A stretch of 64,000 nucleotides of DNA from Candidatus Alcyoniella australis. GTDB taxonomy: Bacteria; Lernaellota; Lernaellaia; JAVCCG01; Alcyoniellaceae. The stretch's first letter is position 1. Every line of letters begins with the position of its first letter. The notes below the pieces were generated by a model. It did not search any database. It worked only from the letters and a program-made list of their open reading frames with translations, and was not told where the DNA came from. The stretch covers positions 12,086 through 76,085 of the forward strand of contig JAVCCG010000133.1 of assembly GCA_030765605.1 (NCBI GenBank). Direction: 5' to 3'. The translations under genes and the position numbers were made by a program. Positions 4,245-63,222 of this stretch are shown one piece after another.

Positions 4245-5500
4245 TGGCTGTCGTCCTTGCGATCGGAGCGCTTGCTGCTGTAGATCTTGGTCGTCATCAA
4301 CTCGACGATCTTCTCGCCGATCGTGCCGATCCAGGTCAGCAGTTTGATCTCGCGCTCGGTGGTGCGGGCCCACAGCAGGTAGACCCCCAACATCAGGAAC
4401 ATCACGTTGGGCACCCAGAGCATTACCGCCGGGTGCAGCCAGCCGCGCCAGCCGACGTTCTCTCCCACCCGGAACAGGACGTAGTAGACGCACAGCACCA
4501 GCAGCCCGACCGTGAAGCCGCGGCTGCGCCCCGAACGCACCGGCGCGATCCCCAGCGGGATGCCGGCCACGGCGAACACCAGGCAGGCGAAGGGAAAGGC
4601 GAAGCGCCGATGGAACTCGGTGAGCGCCCGGCGGTATTTGTAGGCCAGCCAGGCCCGGCGATCCTCGTCGGAGTTCGGGTCGGGATTTTGAACCACCTCG
4701 AGCCGCCGCTTGATCTCGCGGGCGAGCTCGAGCTGTCCCATGTGCAAATACTCCTTTTCGAAGTCCTCGCCGCCCAGCGGCAGGTCGACCTTGAAGTTGG
4801 TGTCGTAGACGTCGAAGCGCACGATCTCGTACTCGTCCTGGTTTTCGGAACTGCGGTGGATCGAGCCGCTCTCAAGGCGGATCGTCAGCAGGTCGGTGCC
4901 GGGGCGCGGAATCAAGCGACCGTACTCGGCGACGACGATCGTCGGCGCGCGCTCGTCGCGGGTGTCCGAGACAAAGACCTGCTCCATCCGCTCGTCCTTG
5001 GGGTTAATGCGGTTGACGTAGAGCACCAGGTCCTCGAGGTCGGTCTTGAACACCCGCTCCTCCAGGGCGATCAGCACCTTGGAGCGCGCGAGCTTGAGCT
5101 TGAGCAGCTCGAGATTGTACAGTCCCGCGGGCGCGGCCTGCAGCGTGATGAACGCCGCGAACGCGGTGACGATCAACCCCAGCAGCAATACCGGCCACAG
5201 GTGCTTGTGCAGACCAATGCCGCTGGCCTTCATCGCGATGATCTCCGAATCGCCCGAGAGCCGGTTGAATGCCAGCAGCACGGCGAGCAGAAACGAGATC
5301 GGCATGGTGAACACAGTCAGCGGCAGGATCAGATAGAGCAGCAGCCGCAGCACGTCGGCGACCTCGACCCCGTAGCTCACCACCAGGTCGACCAGCTGCA
5401 GGATCTGGAACATCATCACCACGAACGTGAAGATGAACAGGCCCATGATAAACGGGACCAGCACCTCGCGGATTACATACCAAGTGAGGGTGCGCGACAT
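4241..5500 (-). CDS. lptF: LPS export ABC permease LptF (YjgP/YjgQ family)
   Basis: 419 aa, typical LptF N-terminus MSRTLTWYVIREVL, periplasmic beta-jellyroll between TM3-4. Confidence 0.8.
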   Translation of the reverse strand: MSRTLTWYVIREVLVPFIMGLFIFTFVVMMFQILQLVDLVVSYGVEVADVLRLLLYLILPLTVFTMPISFLLAVLLAFNRLSGDSEIIAMKASGIGLHKHLWPVLLLGLIVTAFAAFITLQAAPAGLYNLELLKLKLARSKVLIALEERVFKTDLEDLVLYVNRINPKDERMEQVFVSDTRDERAPTIVVAEYGRLIPRPGTDLLTIRLESGSIHRSSENQDEYEIVRFDVYDTNFKVDLPLGGEDFEKEYLHMGQLELAREIKRRLEVVQNPDPNSDEDRRAWLAYKYRRALTEFHRRFAFPFACLVFAVAGIPLGIAPVRSGRSRGFTVGLLVLCVYYVLFRVGENVGWRGWLHPAVMLWVPNVMFLMLGVYLLWARTTEREIKLLTWIGTIGEKIVELMTTKIYSSKRSDRKDDSQ

Positions 5501-5507
5501 CGATTAA

Positions 5508-5685
5508 CCCGGAATATTCATGAAGCTCCTACTGCGGCGCACAATACGCTCGCAATAACTTCGTCATCCTCACCGATCCGTCCTCGACGTACCGTAGCGG
5601 GTACGCCTGCGGAGTATCGGCTCGGCTTTCTCATTCTTGCGGTGTCTTGTGTGCCTCGTCAACGAACCCTCATGAATAATCCGGG
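5508..5685 (+). repeat. Copy 1 of a ~178-bp intergenic repeat element with ~16-21 bp terminal inverted repeats (cccggaatattcatga...tcatgaataatccggg)
   Basis: ~140-nt core (ctgcggcgcacaat.cgctcgcaataac...gacgtaccg.ag.gggtacg.ctgcg...cttgcgg..tcttg...cg..acgaaccctc) shared with copies at 31623-31799 and 57883-58062; lies between divergent lptF and ftsK. Confidence 0.8.
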
Positions 5686-5797
5686 TTAAGTGTAGGTAAT
5701 GCGCCGAAGCTGTGCAATCGAAGGTAGCGCGCCGCGCGCACGTTTACATTGCACGCTGATCGGGTAGAATCGGCCGCGGGCCTGTTTATCGGATAGG

Positions 5798-8498
<2,701 letters not shown>

Positions 8499-9733: not shown

Positions 9734-10168
9734 TCAGGAAGCTGGAACGTCCGGGCACGCGTCCCAGCACTCGACGAAGTCCGAGTAGCACTGCTGGTCG
9801 TCGGCCCCCAGATCAAGGCAATCGTTGAGCGCGTCAGTGCAGTCGGAAAGGCAACTCACCCACGGCGCATCGCCATAGCCGTTGGCCTCGAGGCAGTCCA
9901 GATAGGGCCCCAGATCTTCGGCGTAGCAATCCAGGGCGTCTTCCCAATTCGCACCCGCGGCATCCAGGCAGGCGATCAAGGCGTTGTACTCGGTGTCGCA
10001 CTCGCCCGAGTACTCGTCGTCGTCGTCATCGTCGTCGTCGTCGTCATCGTCATCGTCCAGGGTGTCGTCGTCGTCATCATCGTCGTCGTCGCCACCGCAG
10101 GAGATCAGCGGAACAACTGTCAGCGCCAGGCCCAGCACAAAGGCCAGTAACAGCCACCATTTTTTCAT
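9734..10168 (-). CDS. Small lipoprotein with poly-Asp linker and Cys-rich acidic C-terminal module
   Basis: Signal peptide MKKWWLLLAFVLGLALTVVPLISC (lipobox), then GGDDDDDDDDDTLDDDDDDDDDDDDDDE, then 10 Cys in ~90 aa; ORF-track frame extends 5 codons further upstream (to 10183). Confidence 0.6.
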   Translation of the reverse strand: MKKWWLLLAFVLGLALTVVPLISCGGDDDDDDDDDTLDDDDDDDDDDDDDDEYSGECDTEYNALIACLDAAGANWEDALDCYAEDLGPYLDCLEANGYGDAPWVSCLSDCTDALNDCLDLGADDQQCYSDFVECWDACPDVPAS

Positions 10169-18676: not shown

Positions 18677-19221
18677 TGAATGCTCCTTCTGCTGAAACAA
18701 ATAATTTTGTTCGCCAATGTAATGCAACATCAGTGCCGTTTGCGTTTTTACAAGATATTTATTGCAACTGTATATTAACCCTGGATTTTATGCAAAAGAA
18801 AATCATGACTTAAAATGCCAATAATGTAATTAATGTAACATTAAAGAGTCACGTTGTCTCAATTATGGTGCATAAAACGCTGGAAAAGGTCAAGGAAGGC
18901 TCCGATGCTTAATACTTAAATAAACACAAAAAACAATGGTTTATTATCGATGTGGTCGAGAATAGCTCTTTTTTTTAACCTTCTGACGCATAAATTTCCT
19001 TAACATCAAGAAGGTTCGTATATTTAGAATGAGACATTACGATTTGAAGGATCGCCAGCCTGCAAATGGGAAGAGGGCGGGAGGAGGGATAATATTGCGG
19101 TTAACAATATTGTATGGAGGCTCGCGGAAAGCTGATTTGAGCAGCGGCAAGGTGCGCGAACAACGCTGGTTGCAATGCGATGACTCGCCCCACGACAGCG
19201 CCCTTGGAGGCGGCTTGGAGT

Positions 19222-19379
19222 CGCTACAAAACACGCGCAGTACGCTGGTTGTAATGCCAATATCCACTCCGCAGCGAAAGTAGGGTGGTGGGTAATAGTG
19301 CCGCTACAAAACACGCGCAGTACGCTGGTTGTAATGCCAAGATCCACTCCGCGGCGAAAGTAGGGTGGTGGGTAATAGT
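19222..19379 (+). repeat. Tandem duplication: 2 x ~78-bp unit (period 80) in the 790-bp AT-rich region upstream of rnfA
   Basis: cgctacaaaacacgcgcagtacgctggttgtaatgccaa(t/g)atccactccgc(a/g)gcgaaagtagggtggtgggtaatagt repeated with 2 mismatches. Confidence 0.85.
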
Positions 19380-19523: not shown

Positions 19524-20099
19524 ATGGGCACCCTACTGCTGGTCATCGTCTCTGCCGTTCTGGTCAACAACTTTGTCTTGGCGAAATTCCTCGGGATTTG
19601 CCCGTTCCTGGGCGTGTCGCGCAAGGTCGAGACCGCCCTGGGAATGTCGATGGCCGTGCTGTTCGTGATGACCGTGGCCGGCGTTGTCACCTATTTCGTG
19701 CAGCAGGTGTTGGTCCGTTTCCAGATCGAGTACCTGCAGACCATCGCTTTTATTCTGGTAATCGCCACCTTGGTGCAACTGGTCGAGATCGTATTGCAGA
19801 AGATCTCGCCGGCGCTGTACCAGGCACTGGGAATCTTCCTGCCGCTGATCACCACCAACTGCGCGGTGCTCGGCGTGGCCGTAATCAACGTACAAAAGGA
19901 TTACGACTTCGTCACCACGCTGGTGCACAGTCTGGGCGCGGCCATCGGCTTCGGTCTGGCGCTGGTGCTGTTTGCCGGCATCCGCGAGCGAATCGAGAGC
20001 GCGGATGTGCCTGAGAGCTTCAAAGGCACGGCCCTGGCCCTGGTTACCGCCGGACTGCTGAGCTTGGCGTTCATGGGCTTCAGCGGCCTGGTGCGCTGA
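19524..20099 (+). CDS. rnfA: Rnf electron-transport complex subunit A
   Basis: 191 aa polytopic membrane protein, NqrDE/RnfAE family. Confidence 0.9.
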
Positions 20100-31588: not shown

Positions 31589-31622
31589 GAGGCTAAGTGG
31601 CGATGATTATCACGCGTCCTAA

Positions 31623-31799
31623 CCCGCATTTCTCACGAGGGGTCTACTGCGGTGCACAATCTGCTCGCAATAACAGCGTCATCCTCGCCGATCCATGCTC
31701 GACGTACCGCAGAGGGTACGTCTGCGCAGAATCGACTCGTCTTCCTTGTTCTTGCGGCATCTTGCACGCCTCGCTACGAACCCTCGTGAGAAATGCGGG
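31623..31799 (+). repeat. Copy 2 of the ~178-bp intergenic repeat element; terminal stem cccgcatttctcacgagggg / cccctcgtgagaaatgcggg (19-20 bp perfect)
   Basis: Core aligns with copies 1 and 3; 3' arm contains the ATG (31793) of the downstream zincin-like gene. Confidence 0.8.
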
Positions 31800-32158
31800 C
31801 TAAATTCGAGCGCATTGTTCAGCGCGCGCTGGACACGATCCCGGACGAGTTCCAGGAGTACATCGCGCAGGTGCCGGTGCTGGTCGAGGATCGGCCGGAC
31901 CCCGAGCTGCTGGCCGAGCTGGGCATGGACCCGGACGAGCTGCTGTTCGGGGTGTTCCTCGGCGTGCCCGTGGGCGAGCTCAGTGTGTTCGACGTGGTAA
32001 CCGACGTGCCGCGGATCGTGATCTTCCGCGAGGATCTGAGCCAGGCGTTCCCCGACGAGGCCGAGCTTTGCCACGAGATCCAGACCACGGTGCTGCACGA
32101 GGTGGCGCACCTGTTCGGCCTGGACGAGGCGCGGCTGGATGAACTGGGGTTCGGTTGA
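31793..32158 (+). CDS. Small HExxH zincin-like metallopeptidase-family protein
   Basis: 121 aa, 'VLHEVAHLFGLDE' HExxH motif, acidic; start codon inside repeat copy 2. Confidence 0.55.
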   Translation: MRAKFERIVQRALDTIPDEFQEYIAQVPVLVEDRPDPELLAELGMDPDELLFGVFLGVPVGELSVFDVVTDVPRIVIFREDLSQAFPDEAELCHEIQTTVLHEVAHLFGLDEARLDELGFG

Positions 32159-32857: not shown

Positions 32858-34195
<1,338 letters not shown>

Positions 34196-38464: not shown

Positions 38465-38752
38465 ATGAACCTGAAAGACGACGTTAGGCCGATCACCTAC
38501 CTAAAGAACAACACCGCGGAGTTGGTGCGGGACGTTTCGCAGGACGGCCGAACCGTGCTGATTACGCAGAACGGCGAGGCCAAGGTCGTGGTGATGGACG
38601 TGGATACCTACTCCCGTTGGCGCAATGCCCTGGCGCTGATGAAGATGATCTCCCAGGGCGAGGCTGATGTTGACGCGGGCCGGGTGCTGACCCAGGACGA
38701 GGCGTTCGCAAGGGCGGAAAGGACAATCGAGCGGGCCACCGCCGATGAGTGA
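38465..38752 (+). CDS. Phd/YefM-family type II antitoxin
   Basis: 'RPITYLKNNTAELVRDVSQDGRTVLITQNGEAKVVVMDVDTY' is the canonical Phd/YefM N-terminal fold pattern. Confidence 0.75.
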   Translation: MNLKDDVRPITYLKNNTAELVRDVSQDGRTVLITQNGEAKVVVMDVDTYSRWRNALALMKMISQGEADVDAGRVLTQDEAFARAERTIERATADE

Positions 38753-39092
38753 GCGTAAATATAAAGTGCTCTGGGCTGAAAGCGGAGCACGCGACCTGGA
38801 GGAGATCGTCCTGCACATCGCCCAGGACTCTCCGGGCAACGCGCGCAAAGGACTCAAACGGCTGAGGGACAAGGCCGCGGCCCTGGAGACTCTTCCCCTG
38901 CGCGGTCGGGTCGTGCCCGAGCTGGCCCGCCTGGGCCTGCGCTCCTGGCGCGAGCTGATGTTGAAACCCTATCGCATTGTCTATCGCGTTGATTCCCAAA
39001 CCGTGCTGGTCCTGGCGCTCATCGACTCCCGCCGCGACCTGGAAGACCTGCTGCTCGAACGCATGGTAAGACCGGCAGATTTACAGTTATAA
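38745..39092 (+). CDS. parE: ParE/RelE-family type II toxin
   Basis: 115 aa, overlaps antitoxin by 8 nt, ParE-like 'ARDLEEIVLHIAQDSP...PELARLGLRSWREL...YRIVYRVD' pattern. Confidence 0.7.
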   Translation: MSERKYKVLWAESGARDLEEIVLHIAQDSPGNARKGLKRLRDKAAALETLPLRGRVVPELARLGLRSWRELMLKPYRIVYRVDSQTVLVLALIDSRRDLEDLLLERMVRPADLQL

Positions 39093-48350: not shown

Positions 48351-51185
48351 TCATAGCGGCGGCGGCGAGACAGCCCGCATCTTTACATCCGAGGGCAGCA
48401 CCAGCAGTCCGCCGAGCATGCTGATGTCGGACTGTCCGCTGATCAGCACCTCCATTCGGCCGTCGTCGTTGAAGAACATCCGGCCGGTTTGCTCCAGGGC
48501 CAGCTCGTGCTCGAGTAGCGCGTTGAGGATTCCGTTGCGCACCGTGAAGTAGGTCATCATCGAGATGTTCATCTGCGGCAGACCGTCGTCGGCCTCGACC
48601 ACCGGGGCCATACCGGTCTGGAAAACGTCGATGGTGATCGGACCCATGCCCACGGGCCCGGGATCGCCCGGCGACTTGTCGTCGTCGTCCATCGTCAGGC
48701 CCATTGAGGTGGAGGTGGCGTAGAGCACGATGCCGCTGGAGAGCGAGATGTCCAGGTACGGCTCGCCGTCGCGGTCGTAGGCCAGCCCCCTGACGAACGA
48801 GACCATCTCGCCGCTGACGTAGCTGGGCCAGACGATCAAGGCGGAGAGGATCTCAATTTGATTCTCGGGCGTGGGCGTTTCGGTGTCGTCGAAGAAGCCG
48901 TTGCCGTCGGTGTCGGAGATCGGGTCGGCGTGTAAAAACAGCTCGACGTCGGCCGTGGGCTCGACCGCGGTGAAGTCCAGGCGGTAGTCCTCGCCGCCGG
49001 GCTCCAGGTCGTTGTCCGTGTCGAGCTGCGCGCTGCCGTAGGAACGGATTTCCTCGCTGAGCTGCAGGCGGTAGCGCCGCCCGGGGGTCAGCGGCTCGTC
49101 GGGGATGATCACCAGCTTGCGCCAGTCGACCACGCTGGTGGCGTTCACCAGGGTGCCCGCGTCGATGTCGTAGAGCAGTACGGTGTCGCCGTAGTACATC
49201 GTTTCGCGGTTCATCACCTGGGTGAAGAACACCGTGGGCCACAGGTTGCACGGGTAGGTCGAGCCGTACTCGTTGGGCACGTCCATGGTCCCCAGCTTGG
49301 GCGGCCAGTACGACCAGGCGGCCGCGTTGGTCGAGAACGTCGTGCCCCAACGCTCGGTCAGGGCGTTGCCCGCCAAGTCGCAAAGTCCGGGTTCGGCGAA
49401 CACGCCGTAGGCGGAGGAGGGCTCAAGCGGCTCGATCGGCCGCAGCGCGACCTTGGCGCCGTCCACGCTCACCGCGCAGGGCACCTGCTCTTCGTCCGCG
49501 TTGTAGAGCTTGACGAACTCGATGGTCGTCGGGTCGAGCGCCTCGTTGAAAAAGACGATCACCGGCGACTCGACCGGCACCAGCTTGGACGACTGCTGCG
49601 GCAGGCTCGAGAGCGCCTGCGGCGGCGTGCGGTCGGCCTTGCGCTGCGGCGTGCCGGGGTAGGGAATCTGGTAGAGCGAGATCGTGGTCGGGATCGACTC
49701 GCCGGCCAGCTTGAGCTCGGAGTAGCCCATCAGCTCGAGCACCATCTCGCCGTCCTCGCGCACGTAGCTCACGCCCACCAGTTCGACCCCCAGGATCTGC
49801 TGGGTCATGTTCGAGTTGGCGGTCGGATCCTCGGCCGTGAGCGAGATGTCCATCACCAGGGTCAGCGCGGGAAGCACCTCGGTGTTGCCAACATAGTCGC
49901 GGCTGTCGCGCAAATAGCCCGACACGTCGCTGAGCATCTCGATGGTCAGCGGGCCGGTGACCAGCCCGGCGGGAATCTTGCCGCCGAGCATCGCGCTCAT
50001 GCTGCTGGTGATCAGTTTTTCGCCGGCGCGGATCGTCAGCGGAATCTGCGAGAAGTCGCCGGTCTCGCCCAGCTCGCTGAACAGCGCGCCGCCCACGTAC
50101 AACACGGACTCGCCCAGCAGTTTGCTGTCGGCGATCATCGTGTTCGCCGGACGGCCGGTCAGCGGGCTCAGCGGCATGTCTTCCGGGTCGAGGGCCTCGT
50201 GCAGGTCGCCGTCCGCGGCCGAGGGCCAGGCGTCGGTGATCAGCCGGCGTCGCGGCTCAGTGCTTTGCGGGTAGAAGCTCCAGACGAACGCCTGCTGCAA
50301 CCCCGCGCCGTTCAGATCGTGGATCGCGGCAACGGCCACATCGTCATCGTCGTCGTCATCATCGTCGTCGGCCTTGGATGATTCATCGTCGTCGGCGTCC
50401 GGGTACTCGAAGGGGTCGGCCTCGATGGTCAGCTCGTAGGGCAGCTTCGGGTTGAGGTCGTCGAGCGGATCGATCACCACCAGGTTGCCCTGCACAAAGA
50501 CCCGCGCTGCCACCAGCTCGCCGGGCTCGTCCGCCGGACCCTCGTCCTGTTGGTCGTCGTCATCATCATCGTCGGCCTTGGCGTCTTCGCCGGCCACGCG
50601 CAGATGCACGCTTTGGCCGTAGATCACGCTTTGGGCAACGATGGGCTCGGAAAACGCAATGCGGAAGGTCGAGATGTCCAGCACCTCGTCCTGGGCCGGG
50701 TTGGTGTAGGCGACAGTGGGGAAGGCGCTGGAGTCGGGCCGGTCGGGCTTGGTCTGGAACACGATCTGCTGGATCTTACCGTCCATCAGCGGCGCGCGTC
50801 CCTGGAAGTCGCGCACGCCGTTGCGCAGTCGCACGCGGTAGCTCTGGTTGCCGCGCAGGGGGACCAGCGGAGTCAGTTCCACCGAGCTGCGGTGTAGGGT
50901 CAGCTTGTGGTCCACGGACTCGGTGCCGCCGCGCTCGAGCAGCCGCACAAAGCTCACCTGCCCCTCGACGGTCGCCGGGTCGATCGGCGCGGAGAACGCC
51001 AGGTGCACCCGGGCATGCACCGGCACCTGCTGCATCCCCTGATAGGGGTAGGCCGCGAGCAGGGTGAAGTTGTCGATCTTTGAAGTCTCGAGCCCGGCGT
51101 CGTCGTCCTTTTCGGAGCAGGCGGCGAACAGGGCCAAAGACACAATCAGCAAGATGCAGATCAATCCGCGCTGATACATCGCCAA
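48351..51185 (-). CDS. Large surface lipoprotein with bacterial Ig-like domains and poly-Asp tracts
   Basis: Signal peptide + LFAACS lipobox; repeated Ig-like (SbsA/BIG-type) segments; DDDDDDQQDE and DDDESSKADDDDDDDDDD tracts; immediately downstream of FadL-family gene. Confidence 0.6.
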   Translation of the reverse strand: MAMYQRGLICILLIVSLALFAACSEKDDDAGLETSKIDNFTLLAAYPYQGMQQVPVHARVHLAFSAPIDPATVEGQVSFVRLLERGGTESVDHKLTLHRSSVELTPLVPLRGNQSYRVRLRNGVRDFQGRAPLMDGKIQQIVFQTKPDRPDSSAFPTVAYTNPAQDEVLDISTFRIAFSEPIVAQSVIYGQSVHLRVAGEDAKADDDDDDDQQDEGPADEPGELVAARVFVQGNLVVIDPLDDLNPKLPYELTIEADPFEYPDADDDESSKADDDDDDDDDDVAVAAIHDLNGAGLQQAFVWSFYPQSTEPRRRLITDAWPSAADGDLHEALDPEDMPLSPLTGRPANTMIADSKLLGESVLYVGGALFSELGETGDFSQIPLTIRAGEKLITSSMSAMLGGKIPAGLVTGPLTIEMLSDVSGYLRDSRDYVGNTEVLPALTLVMDISLTAEDPTANSNMTQQILGVELVGVSYVREDGEMVLELMGYSELKLAGESIPTTISLYQIPYPGTPQRKADRTPPQALSSLPQQSSKLVPVESPVIVFFNEALDPTTIEFVKLYNADEEQVPCAVSVDGAKVALRPIEPLEPSSAYGVFAEPGLCDLAGNALTERWGTTFSTNAAAWSYWPPKLGTMDVPNEYGSTYPCNLWPTVFFTQVMNRETMYYGDTVLLYDIDAGTLVNATSVVDWRKLVIIPDEPLTPGRRYRLQLSEEIRSYGSAQLDTDNDLEPGGEDYRLDFTAVEPTADVELFLHADPISDTDGNGFFDDTETPTPENQIEILSALIVWPSYVSGEMVSFVRGLAYDRDGEPYLDISLSSGIVLYATSTSMGLTMDDDDKSPGDPGPVGMGPITIDVFQTGMAPVVEADDGLPQMNISMMTYFTVRNGILNALLEHELALEQTGRMFFNDDGRMEVLISGQSDISMLGGLLVLPSDVKMRAVSPPPL

Positions 51186-52861: not shown

Positions 52862-53587
52862 CTAGCGGCGCAGATTCGAAAGCGGTTCCCATTGGCCGTT
52901 GGCTGTCCGGTATTTCCAGAGGTTCCAACCGTTCACATTGCGGCGGCAGACAGCCCGCCCTGCGCCCGAGGGGGTGTTGTAGAGTGCTCCGTTGAACTGG
53001 ATTCTTCCGCTGTACAACACATGTGCCTTGTACTCTTTTCCCTTGTACGTGGCCTTGATCGTCTTGCCAGATAACAGCCCTTTGAGAACAGGCTTGGCGC
53101 TCTTTGCTTTTATCCTGGAAGTTGCTCCCTTTTTCCCCTTGCCCTTGGGATTTTGCGCGTTGGATCGTTTGTTGCCAAAAATGATATCTTCTTCTCGGCG
53201 TTTGACCTCCTGGTATCTGCTCTTCAAAACCTTTTTCAGATCCTCCGAGTTTTTCAACTTGCCCAAGGAAATATTTGCTTTGGGGTTGGCAATGCGCAAC
53301 ACGAAGGTTTCAAGCTCTCTCATATGCTCGGACTTGCGGGTGATATAGAGACTGAAGTGATCCCATTTCCCTGCCAGCTTATCTCGCTGGTGTTGCTTAA
53401 GGCGTTTTTTAAGGTCGCGGGCCAGGCCGACGTAGACCAGTCGGTGGTTCTTTCCTTTATATAGGGCATATATCCCATGTTGTTCGCCGATCAACTCTGC
53501 GATTAACTCAGGGTATTTCTGGAAGACGGTGCTGGTAATCAGCTCGAGGTGCCCGGTAATAAGCGTCTGCGAGAAAAAGCTGAGCAT
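52862..53587 (-). CDS. GIY-YIG nuclease-domain protein with basic linker and uncharacterised C-terminal domain, in low-GC islet
   Basis: 'GIYALYKGKNHRLVYVGLARDLKKRLKQH' GIY-YIG motif; KGKGKKG linker; C-terminal 'W..W.YRTANGQWEPLSNLR'; ~47 % GC vs ~65 % flanks. Confidence 0.6.
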   Translation of the reverse strand: MLSFFSQTLITGHLELITSTVFQKYPELIAELIGEQHGIYALYKGKNHRLVYVGLARDLKKRLKQHQRDKLAGKWDHFSLYITRKSEHMRELETFVLRIANPKANISLGKLKNSEDLKKVLKSRYQEVKRREEDIIFGNKRSNAQNPKGKGKKGATSRIKAKSAKPVLKGLLSGKTIKATYKGKEYKAHVLYSGRIQFNGALYNTPSGAGRAVCRRNVNGWNLWKYRTANGQWEPLSNLRR

Positions 53588-56804: not shown

Positions 56805-57830
56805 CTATGAGCTGTCGACGCGCACGATCCCCATCAGCTCGTCCTTGAACTCGCGTTTGAGTAGATCGCGCAACGCGTCTTGGAGCGGCTTGTCCTCGTG
56901 CAGCACCTTATAGACCTGTTCGGTGATCGGCATGTCCACGCCAAGCTGCTGCGACAGCCGATACCCGGCCTTGGCCGCGTAATACCCTTCGACCACCGCT
57001 CCCTGGGACTCGATGATTTCCAGCGGGCCTTCGCCGCGGGCCACGCGCTTGCCGAAGGTGCGATTGCGCGACAGCTCGCCGGTGCAGGTCAGCACCAGGT
57101 CGCCGATTCCGGCCAGACCCAGGAAGGTCAGCGGGTTGGCCCCTTTGGCCACTCCCAGGCGCGTGACTTCGGCCAGCCCGCGGGTGATCAACGCGGCGCG
57201 GGTGTTTAGCCCCAGCCCCATGCCGTCGATGCCGCCGGCGGCAATGGCGATCACGTTCTTAATTGTGGCGCCGACCTGCACGCCGATGGGGTCGTCGCTG
57301 GTGTAGACGCGGAAGAACGGCGTGTGGAACTGCTGTTGCAGCTGTTTGGCCACGGCGTTGTCGAGCGCCGCGAGCACCACGTCGGTGGGCTGACCCTCGG
57401 CCACCTCGCGGGCGAAGCTCGGGCCGCTGAGCACGGCGATGCGCGCGGCGCGTTGGGGATCGAGCATCCCGACGAGCACCTCGGTCATCAGTTCCAGGGT
57501 CTGCTCCTCGAGCCCCTTGGTCAAAATCACCAGCGGCGCATCGTGCGGCGTGTGCTCGACCGCCTTGGACGCCACGGCGCGGAAGTGGTTTGACGGGCAG
57601 GCCAGCACCACGATTTGCACGTCGCAGGCCTTGGCCATCTCGGCGGTCGGTGTGACGGTTTCCGGGATCTCGATCCCCGGAAGGTACAGGTCGTTCTCGC
57701 GAGTTTGGCGCATGGTCTGCACCAGGTCGGGCTCAAAGGCCCAGAGCCTTACCGCGTGGCCGTTCTTAGCCAGCTGCACTGCGAACGCGGTTCCCCAAGC
57801 GCCGGCTCCCACGACTCCGATTACGGCCAT
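56805..57830 (-). CDS. gpsA: NAD(P)H-dependent glycerol-3-phosphate dehydrogenase
   Basis: Start at Met14 of ORF-track frame (MAVIGVVGAGAWGTAFA Rossmann); GpsA conserved blocks throughout. Confidence 0.85.
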   Translation of the reverse strand: MAVIGVVGAGAWGTAFAVQLAKNGHAVRLWAFEPDLVQTMRQTRENDLYLPGIEIPETVTPTAEMAKACDVQIVVLACPSNHFRAVASKAVEHTPHDAPLVILTKGLEEQTLELMTEVLVGMLDPQRAARIAVLSGPSFAREVAEGQPTDVVLAALDNAVAKQLQQQFHTPFFRVYTSDDPIGVQVGATIKNVIAIAAGGIDGMGLGLNTRAALITRGLAEVTRLGVAKGANPLTFLGLAGIGDLVLTCTGELSRNRTFGKRVARGEGPLEIIESQGAVVEGYYAAKAGYRLSQQLGVDMPITEQVYKVLHEDKPLQDALRDLLKREFKDELMGIVRVDSS

Positions 57831-57882
57831 CGTCGATCCTCCTGTATCTGGAACATCGACAGTATACATCCCGGTTCCCCCA

Positions 57883-58062
57883 GCCTGAATTATTCATGAA
57901 GCTTCTGCTGCGGCGCACAATCTGCTCGCAATAACGGTGTCATCCTCGCTGATCCGTCCTCGACGTACCGCAGAGGGTACGCCTGCGGAGTATCGACTCG
58001 GCTTCCTTGTTCTTGCGGCATCTTGTACGCCTCGCGACGAACCCTCATGAATAATTCAGGCT
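57883..58062 (+). repeat. Copy 3 of the ~178-bp intergenic repeat element; perfect 17-bp terminal inverted repeat gcctgaattattcatga / tcatgaataattcaggc
   Basis: Core nearly identical to copy 2; lies between divergent gpsA and glycosyltransferase genes. Confidence 0.8.
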
Positions 58063-61839: not shown

Positions 61840-63222
61840 CTAATTAAAAAAGGCGATGGAGATTCCCTCTGAGCGCGAGGGCCAATTGCGCACGGCCAGG
61901 GGGCGACCGCTGAACTCGAAGTTCGTCGCGGCCTGCTGGTCGCCGGCCACACGCATGTCGAAAACGCGGATGAACGGCACCATGTCAAACGGGAATCCGG
62001 CCATTGTCAGGTCGCTGACGCCGTTGAAGTTGGAGTCGATGAATCCCACAACGATGGTCGAGGCCTGCGGATCACCGATGGGCGTGGCCGCGAGGTCCAA
62101 TCCGTTGACCAGCAGCGTGTCGCGGCCCGCGACCAGCGAGCGGTTGAGGTTGAGGTAGGCGACCAAGGCCAACTCGTCGTCAAAGGGGATCAGCCGGAAC
62201 ACGTACCCAAGGAAGCTCTCCGGTCCGGGGAATGAGCGGAAGTGGACCTTGTCGCTGGAACGCACGAACGGCTCGCGGTAGTAGTGCACCGGCGGCAACT
62301 CCGGGTCGGGGTCGATGTAGACGAACTCGTAATAGGCCTCGGGCTCGGCAATCAGCTCGCCCCAATATCCGTTGTCGTCGACCTGAAATACGGCCAGCGG
62401 CTGCTCGCTGTAACGCATCGCGTTCGCCGGATCGACCTGATAGACACGCAGTTCGATGCCCGCTTTGGGCAGGTTCTCGCCCAGGGTCAACACGCGACCC
62501 GCGAGGCGGATCGGGCTGTGCGGCTCGATTTGGGTGGTGCGCGGCTCACGGTCGTTGAAGAAGCGATAAATCTCGTCAAACGTCTGGGCCGAGGTCGCCA
62601 GTTGCAGATGATCCAGGCCAGGCAGAACCACATTTTGCGCACCCTCGATCTGGGTGACGCCGCCGATGATGTAGTCGTCGGGCGATGAGATGTTGAGCGT
62701 ATCGACCAGCGCGGGGAAGTCCTGGTAGGGGAGCGCGGCAAGGTTGGCGTAGTGTGCCACCAGCGCCGGATTGCCGGGCCGCGAGAGGAACTCGTGACAC
62801 AGGTAGCCGCCCATCGAGTGCCCCAGCAGGTCGATCTGCTGCGCGCCGCTACGTTGCATCACCTCGGCTACGAAGCCCTCGAGGCGCAGGGTTTCGTACT
62901 TCACATCGCCCAGGGTGTTCCAGTCGAAGCTGTGGATTTGCTCCGGGCAGTAGCCGTTGGTGGTCAGGCGCTGTGTCTGGGTGTGGAACGCGTCGCCGTT
63001 CTCGATTAATCCGTGGGCAAAGACGATGGGCAGCAGCGTATCGTCGCACTCGGGCTGACCGTCGTCGTCGCCATCGTCGTCGTTGCCGGAATCATCGTCG
63101 TCCTGCGGGTCCTGGTCGTCATCATCGTCGTTGGAATCGCAGGCTGTAAGCGCACAGCACAGCAGCACGAATATCAAAACGGCAAGCAGGGCTGCGGTCG
63201 GACTACGCATGATCTTCTCCAT
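61840..63222 (-). CDS. Lipoprotein alpha/beta-hydrolase (lipase/esterase-like) with poly-Asp linker
   Basis: Signal peptide + LTAC lipobox then DSNDDDDDQDPQDDDDSGNDDDGDDDG; 'GHSMGG' nucleophile elbow. Confidence 0.65.
   Translation of the reverse strand: MEKIMRSPTAALLAVLIFVLLCCALTACDSNDDDDDQDPQDDDDSGNDDDGDDDGQPECDDTLLPIVFAHGLIENGDAFHTQTQRLTTNGYCPEQIHSFDWNTLGDVKYETLRLEGFVAEVMQRSGAQQIDLLGHSMGGYLCHEFLSRPGNPALVAHYANLAALPYQDFPALVDTLNISSPDDYIIGGVTQIEGAQNVVLPGLDHLQLATSAQTFDEIYRFFNDREPRTTQIEPHSPIRLAGRVLTLGENLPKAGIELRVYQVDPANAMRYSEQPLAVFQVDDNGYWGELIAEPEAYYEFVYIDPDPELPPVHYYREPFVRSSDKVHFRSFPGPESFLGYVFRLIPFDDELALVAYLNLNRSLVAGRDTLLVNGLDLAATPIGDPQASTIVVGFIDSNFNGVSDLTMAGFPFDMVPFIRVFDMRVAGDQQAATNFEFSGRPLAVRNWPSRSEGISIAFFN

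Follow-up and report, generated by a model that had tools for sequence, protein, structure and literature searches.

Bacterial miniature transposable elements with inverted repeats (MITEs), such as Correia, ERIC, Nezha and Chunjie, are 100-250 bp long, contain no open reading frame (ORF), end in terminal inverted repeats and occur as many dispersed copies with short flanking duplications. They fold into very stable hairpins, and overlap or fuse with the ends of genes (PMC3184786, PMC10969869). In the Bacillus cereus group, the dispersed MITE-like repeat bcr1 (~155 bp, with short direct repeats) carries compensatory changes that keep its double-stranded structure (PMC3184786), and the insertion sequence (IS) IS1237, which belongs to the IS427/IS1031 group of the IS5 family, has ends that begin with GAG and TTA/TAA direct repeats (PMC2516522). 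Here, we describe a repeat present in three copies in a stretch of 64,000 nucleotides (nts) of Candidatus Alcyoniella australis, an uncultured bacterium of the phylum Candidatus Lernaellota (contig JAVCCG010000133.1; the whole stretch is hereafter called the window). The repeat shares the above features of bacterial MITEs, and the three copies probably represent a new MITE-like family that would be moved in trans by an IS5-type transposase. The family is apparently undescribed, and it would be a new family of a known kind.

The comparison with the described elements also shows differences. bcr1 is a precedent for compensatory changes in a MITE-like repeat, whereas its host, its sequence and its 5-bp duplication differ, and bcr1 is transcribed whereas the present element is known here from sequence alone. 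The IS427/IS1031 group of IS5, as well as eukaryotic Harbinger/Tourist, resembles the element in making 3-bp TAA/TTA duplications, while Chunjie differs in being A+T-rich and having 9-bp direct repeats. To our knowledge, the sequences of Correia (Neisseria) and ERIC (Enterobacteriaceae) are unrelated to the Lernaellota element. Compared with bacterial MITEs in general, no similarity in sequence was seen, the termini of the element are its least and the core its most conserved part, no parent IS is known, and its relatives carry about eight phylum labels.

Copy 1 occupies positions 5508-5685 (178 nts, possibly with one more at the right tip, T5686), copy 2 positions 31623-31799 (177 nts, in the 5′ end of the Zincin_1 gene) and copy 3 positions 57884-58060 (177 nts, within a palindrome spanning 57882-58062), all on the + strand and 26 kb apart amid bacterial housekeeping genes. 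An nhmmer profile of the three copies matched each of them with E-values of 1e-65 to 1e-67, confirming the places and the common orientation given by the initial annotation, which had been made from the letters of the window, and found no fourth copy in the whole window. A relaxed search of the window for the apical motif returned exactly the same three sites against 0.04 chance matches expected, and a chance repeat is ruled out by these two results. Column identity averaged 84% across the three copies, calculated on slightly flanked stretches. No ORF conserved across the copies was found; the element is shorter than ~300 bp and has no coding capacity of its own.

When each copy was folded, as the initial annotation had proposed, it formed one long imperfect hairpin from end to end (z = -7 to -11 versus dinucleotide shuffles, on either strand). 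The hairpin consists of a terminal stem of ~20 bp, inner stems, conserved internal loops with the motifs CTACTGCGG on the left arm and CCTCGCTACG on the right arm, which are not complementary to each other, and an apical imperfect palindrome, CTCGACGTAC-N8-GTACGCCTGCG. The apical palindrome is located on the + strand at 5584-5611 in copy 1 (TCGACGTACC-GTAGCG-GGTACGCCTGCG), at 31699-31726 in copy 2 and at 57960-57987 in copy 3. The internal hairpin noticed earlier was thus seen in all three copies, but its perfect 8-bp stem (GACGTACC / GGTACGTC) exists only in copy 2, and copies 1 and 3 have an A.C mismatch there (ggtacgCc). The window copies begin with CCCGG, and all have terminal inverted repeats of 18-20 bp, the sequence of which is specific to the copy; as had been claimed, substitutions on one arm are mirrored on the other. 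Perfect complementarity, also claimed for all copies, applies to copy 3 (18 bp, 57882-57899 / 58045-58062) and to copy 2 (19 bp, CCCGCATTTCTCACGAGGG / CCCTCGTGAGAAATGCGGG; the 20-mer given before contained one c too many), but not to copy 1, in which 15 of 16 bp pair with a single A.A mismatch, or 19 of 20 if the flanking TTAA is included.

The strongest single piece of evidence for insertion is the reading frame at copy 2. The present start codon of Zincin_1 (ATG, 31793-31795, + strand) falls within the right terminal stem of this copy, and therefore the statement that all copies are intergenic holds only in part. A putative start before the insertion is the ATG at 31603-31605 (+ strand), which has a GAGG Shine-Dalgarno sequence at 31589-31592, 10 nts before the ATG. 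Removal of 31623-31803, that is, the element and one CTAA (181 nts), joins this ATG to Zincin_1 in frame, and the reconstructed gene starts with ATG ATT ATC ACG CGT CCT AAA TTC GAG (MIITRPKFER...) and encodes MIITRPKFERIVQ..., 124 amino acids, whereas removal of the 177-nt element alone leads to an in-frame TAA stop codon. The nearest Zincin_1 homologues have 122-125 amino acids; the best of them (P0122) begins with MHISPKAFEE, and the positions F8-E9 are equal in P0122 and in the reconstructed protein. The protein in its present form (121 amino acids) is annotated with 100% identity in an NCBI metagenome-assembled genome (MAG) of Ca. Alcyoniella australis. Because taking out copy 2 together with one duplicate restores an intact Zincin_1 start, we regard the copies as insertions of a non-autonomous mobile element. 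According to this reconstruction, copy 2 was inserted six codons into Zincin_1 and duplicated its target, translation now begins at the ATG in its end, and the empty site, with the element and one of the repeats taken out of the filled site, would read ...CGTCCTAAATTCGAG....

The initial annotation had seen no target-site duplications. However, copy 1 is bracketed by TTAA at 5504-5507 and 5686-5689 (TAA in the 3-bp register, the right one being 5687-5689), and copy 2 by CTAA at 31619-31622 and 31800-31803. The data show the insertion together with its duplication, and from the duplications the enzyme is inferred.

The neighborhood of the copies in other assemblies shows the usual behaviour of short-read assembly at dispersed repeats. 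At the copy-2 locus, the element is present in each of the four other assemblies, in three of them in full (ENA L128, L130 and L131) and in one, L129 (ENA ERZ27316021 k141_38166, ~784-960), with the left half of a different copy joined to the right half of copy 2. L129 could be a recombinant or a chimera of the assembly, and in both cases it shows that a further copy exists in the genome; its left half has the flank CTAG and the end CCCGCATTATTCATGAGG, and this further copy lies ~17 nts upstream of a gene of 174 amino acids. The independent ENA contig L123 stops at window position 57872, 10-12 nts outside copy 3.

Relatives were gathered with the apex pattern CTCGACGTAC-N8-GTACGNCTGCG, which gave at least 120 matching stretches in representative genomes. 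The matches listed come from genomes labelled as about eight phyla, and the labels among them include Binatia, Syntrophobacteraceae and other ‘Deltaproteobacteria’, Nitrospirota, Acidobacteriota, Eisenbacteria, an Actinomycetes MAG and two Firmicutes. Nearly all the matches examined were long hairpins of the family, and they fell into two discrete sizes, a ~185-nt class (181-189 nts), to which the window copies belong, and a ~127-nt class (121-132 nts), which aligns to the inner core of the former; three others (L017, L055 and L062) were chance matches within coding sequence without a long hairpin. The apparent conservation of the apex is partly a matter of ascertainment, because the apex pattern was used for the collection. 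Against ascertainment as the whole cause, a pattern made from the left arm matched 0 genomes of the representative collection, while metagenomes gave two copies, and copies found only with the profile keep a recognisable, slightly variant apex. Plasmids and viral contigs gave no match to the element.

As to known RNA families, Rfam 15 gave nothing at the gathering score for the window and 18 related loci, and at a relaxed threshold only matches of E >= 3.8, which is chance level; membership in such a family was therefore rejected. The sequence had been called unfamiliar, and this agrees with the Rfam result and with a limited literature search for the sequence motif, in which no match and no description were found. 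The nearest relatives of the host according to GpsA (63-69% identity) had no copy in 56 kb, and their synteny around gpsA is absent, hence they offer no orthologous empty site for comparison.

In most related loci there is one copy per 8 kb, and at least 3-4 terminal variants can coexist in a single genome. One copy (L013 3237-3494) is a chimera that combines two different left arms with a single apex and a single right arm and has TTA...TTA as its flanks, and two copies of ~65 bp have kept both ends and lost the inner core (L006 5008-5071, flanked by CAA/TAA, and L071 ~676-737, flanked by TAA/TAA). In the TACGAACGCAATAAATG subfamily (L044, L056, L075, L085, L089, L094, L101 and L113), a conserved extension of ~40 nts past the right end of the hairpin (...GATGTCACTTTAGTTAATACGTTTGTATTA) repeats the terminal motif, and therefore the true right boundary of this subfamily lies outside the hairpin. 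Three Nitrospirota MAGs from different studies (L029, L036 and L079) have a near-identical element of ~130 nts at the same place, upstream of a gene that, from a reading of its ORF, resembles 2-isopropylmalate synthase, and this insertion may have been inherited or retained across closely related species.

The flanks of the ~185-nt class were compared with the expectation from random re-pairing of flanks. Identical flanking 3-mers (TAA, TAG or TTA, in one register) were present in 14 of the 28 copies versus 4.9 expected (P < 5e-5 for all 28 copies), and the excess was observed in both subfamilies, with 7 versus 4.1 (P = 0.035) and 7 versus 2.2 (P = 0.0007). In the Actinomycetes MAG, the flanks are direct and not inverted (TAA...TAA in five copies and TTA...TTA in two), and therefore they are not a mere extension of the palindrome. 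Copies sit at TA-rich sites. In the window subfamily, the target is near-palindromic (TTAA, CTAG), and duplications of 2 bp (TA), 3 bp (TAR) and 4 bp (YTAR) therefore look the same. One subfamily has GAGCC.../GAATC... ends with TAA/TTA repeats, matching the GAG ends of IS1237; such GAG/GAA ends are confined to the Actinomycetes-type subfamily, and the window subfamily starts with CCCGG instead.

Covariation was determined with the 28 aligned copies of the ~185-nt class and a 57-pair structure obtained from the individual folds. Standard pairs accounted for 83% of the cells, compared with 62% after shuffling of the partners and 33-41% with the partner column slid, and the covariation score was 0.51 versus 0.16, attained by 0 of 500 shuffles. 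Changes on both sides were found at 45 of the 57 pairs, all five helices covaried, and so did 16 of the 17 predicted pairs of the terminal stem. The covariation proposed from three copies therefore extends beyond them and along the whole hairpin, and pairing of the arms is clearly maintained. As several stem variants occur per genome, a fixed recognition sequence of a transposase cannot by itself explain the matched ends. One-sided changes (G-C to G-U) were found in ~12 cells versus 352 double changes, and this rarity of G.U intermediates points to complementarity of the arms at the DNA level more than to a typical evolving RNA.

These results are best explained by a MITE-like element that a DDE transposase encoded elsewhere would cut and paste in trans. 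The likeliest enzyme would be of the IS5 family (IS427/IS1031 group) or Harbinger-like, because such elements make 3-bp TAA/TTA duplications; the type of duplication is the single feature that would link the element to IS5. While drifting, the arms stay complementary; the reason may be that a folded single strand or a cruciform is required for mobilisation or stability, or, alternatively, that template-switching during replication of quasi-palindromes transfers changes between the arms. A protein, either the transposase itself or one of the host, probably binds the conserved motifs of apex and loops. The consequences for the host would be incidental, namely, the new start codon of Zincin_1 and, in the leader or promoter regions of lptF and gpsA, a sequence prone to form hairpins. 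The properties by which MITEs are recognised, a small size without an ORF, terminal inverted repeats (in the three copies and 28 relatives), short flanking duplications and dispersed copies, were all observed, and as regards a contrast of filled and empty sites, the copy-2 locus is filled in all four other assemblies. The shell-only deletions, the chimeric copy, the breaks and chimeras of assemblies, the patchy presence and the lack of a recurrent neighbouring gene are also signs of a mobile repeat.

Several observations weigh against this explanation. Copy 3 is flanked by CCAG and CTTG, without a clean duplication, and the insertion of copy 2 is a reconstruction in which the empty site is not directly seen. 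No transposase domain was found when ~54 ORFs of the window were scanned against Pfam, and ~1 Mb of related loci contained neither a recurrent neighbour gene, few of their ORFs having been run through Pfam, nor a full-length IS with matching ends. Conservation is the reverse of that in a classic MITE, since variability is greatest in the terminal repeats and conservation reaches most widely at the apex. The ~127-nt class, which lacks the duplication and is biased in orientation relative to upstream genes, is left unexplained by DDE cut-and-paste. Finally, the non-Watson-Crick cells on the + orientation comprise 93 A.C/C.A versus 26 G.U, an asymmetry that may stem from selection or mutation bias and hints at a strand-specific process; in the terminal stem the numbers are 21 and 4, and these mismatches are mostly private events. 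The initial annotation had named conserved, non-covarying termini with target-site duplications and a cognate transposase as the signs of an ordinary MITE, and the outcome is mixed: the duplications are present as in a MITE, the termini show covariation, and the loci searched yielded no cognate transposase. In four loci, a trpE/trpG-like gene cluster was noticed near the copies from a reading of ORFs, and it was taken as coincidence.

Quasi-palindrome template-switch mutagenesis is established in E. coli, and it is possible, though not what we expect, that the compensatory changes arose in this way without selection, by template-switching or mismatch correction in an ordinary selfish palindromic MITE. 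This explanation addresses why the arms covary and not what the element is. It agrees with the fact that almost every pair is of the Watson-Crick type and one-sided intermediates are very few, and that pairing is kept over the full length, including regions without an obvious role. However, the internal loops and bulges persist at conserved positions and are not corrected, which argues against purely automatic correction of the arms, and the strand asymmetry of the mismatches is not explained by it.

In 20 of 46 copies of the ~127-nt class, the left end is located within 10 nts of a stop codon (TAA, TAG or TGA) that closes an upstream ORF of the same orientation, whereas the right end is never so placed, and the element often fills the gap between two cistrons; examples of the class are L073 (5992-6120), L047, L046 and L085 among the loci L003-L122. 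No flanking duplication was found in this class. The ~185-nt and ~127-nt hairpins might form a cross-phylum class of elements defined by structure, in which the apex and loops are recognised on a folded strand of DNA (as in attC or CTX attP) or RNA by an enzyme or host protein, the ~127-nt form would be a functional module located 3′ of stop codons and kept by bacteria of many phyla, and the window form would be the module placed inside transposon ends; we consider this rather unlikely.

Another unlikely explanation is that a folded single DNA strand is mobilised or recombined by a structure-specific enzyme, either an HUH/Y1 transposase (known from REP/REPIN-RAYT or IS200/IS605) or a tyrosine recombinase (known from integron attC or CTX attP). 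The apex (two inverted arms of ~10 nts with a variable spacer of 6-8 nts) and the loops would be the recognition sites, and the stems would need only to pair. This would account for stems that vary yet stay paired around a conserved apex and loops, for the presence of several terminal-stem variants in one genome and for the strand asymmetry of the mismatches; the ~127-nt class, without duplication and in a fixed orientation after stop codons, is also like attC sites. Nevertheless, the short direct flanking repeats act as true duplications, which HUH enzymes and tyrosine recombinases do not make, and the related loci, mostly with one copy per 8 kb, contained no RAYT, integrase or other recurrent gene, no attC core sites and no cassette arrays. 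Moreover, the orientation of the ~185-nt class was not linked with GC skew.

A further unlikely explanation is that the element is above all a structured RNA, be it a small RNA or a signal for cis-regulation or processing, which would have spread through the genome and whose hairpin would be kept by selection on RNA pairing. Covariation in all five helices and the conservation of the internal-loop and apex motifs across phyla are in its favor, as are the position of ~127-nt copies, often between two cistrons at stop codons, recalling REP-like elements of 3′ untranslated regions, and that of copies 1 and 3 in the leaders of lptF and gpsA. On the other hand, the ~185-nt class showed no orientation bias relative to neighbouring genes (7/6/11/7 over the four arrangements), copy 2 is an insertion in a coding region with a duplication, Rfam gave no match, and the copies yielded neither a conserved promoter of the sigma-70 type nor a conserved terminator. 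One sigma-70-like site, at 5662-5633 on the - strand, was considered as a promoter borne by the element and rejected, since it occurs only in copy 1 and depends on a base specific to that copy. The near absence of wobble intermediates on the + strand also argues against ordinary selection at the RNA level. Although the - strand folds more stably in 79 of 84 elements, the difference stems from purine.purine versus pyrimidine.pyrimidine mismatches in the conserved loops and not from wobble pairs; the idea that the - strand is the functional RNA because of its better fold was set aside, because the conserved loops are pyrimidine-rich on the + strand and this explains the difference. The regulatory, processing or small-RNA role suggested in the initial annotation thus received no support from the computations on orientation, promoters, terminators and G.U intermediates.

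REP and REPIN elements are extragenic multi-copy hairpins, often located after stop codons and in operons, whose structure is more conserved than their sequence, and the palindrome-associated elements of IS200/IS605 have asymmetric ends, carry subterminal hairpins and lack both terminal inverted repeats and a duplication. Membership in these groups or among integron attC sites was considered because the stems are variable and the ~127-nt class follows stop codons. All three were rejected: REP/REPIN make no target duplication, have the conserved REP, a palindrome with 5′ GTAG, in the stem and not in the apex and are accompanied by a RAYT gene, whereas the present element has duplications, variable stems and a conserved apex with no RAYT-like gene near the copies; the stem bases lack the RYYYAAC / GTTRRRY core sites of attC, with no arrays and no linked integrase; and, unlike IS200/IS605, the element has a symmetric build in which terminal inverted repeats are flanked by duplications.

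The result accounts for three odd intergenic stretches in the genome of Ca. Alcyoniella australis and corrects the history of the Zincin_1 gene, the start codon of which is supplied by the element. Copies mark sites where MAG assemblies break or chimerise. More generally, this is a widespread and apparently undescribed superfamily of repeats in uncultivated bacteria of soil, groundwater and lakes, which annotators and those searching for RNA motifs will meet, and its variable but paired ends with a conserved core provide a test case for selection on folding versus automatic correction from arm to arm. The broader superfamily, with its core shared across phyla and the ~127-nt class after stop codons, is a more interesting lead than the window copies.

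As for the surroundings in the window, two copies lie between divergent gene pairs, as had been stated, copy 1 between lptF and ftsK, with lptF/lptG on one side, and copy 3 between gpsA and a family-2 glycosyltransferase gene; the Zincin_1 metallopeptidase gene is to the right of copy 2. The left end of copy 1 is 7 nts from the start codon of lptF (complement of 5498-5500). The longest gpsA ORF (56805-57869, - strand, 354 amino acids) is probably 13 codons too long, as the same GpsA protein is called with 341 amino acids and a start at 57830 in another assembly; an exact-protein look-up of the long ORF gave no match. With the start at 57830, copy 3 is located ~51-54 nts upstream of the gene and not 12-14 nts. 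The host was described from Ace Lake, Antarctica (PMC9324843), in a paper in whose text repeat, transposase, insertion sequence and mobile do not occur as words.

The window contains other repeats as well. Two tandem units of 78-80 bp with 97% identity are present at 19222-19379, with a degenerate third unit at ~19160-19200; they are intergenic, upstream of an rnf operon in which the gene for the Rnf-Nqr subunit begins at 19524, and gave no match in Rfam at the relaxed threshold. Asp-rich (GAC/GAT) repeats in coding sequence are found at 9981-10106, 32862-32993, 50317-50589 and 63032-63133, and a Pro-Glu repeat at 6598-7100 in the linker of FtsK, which together suggest an unusually acidic proteome. 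In addition, an HNH endonuclease gene beside an AAA_21/OLD-like ATPase gene (198-2240), a ParE toxin gene (38745-39092) and a GIY-YIG/RAMA gene (52862-53587) may be defence or addiction modules unrelated to the repeat.

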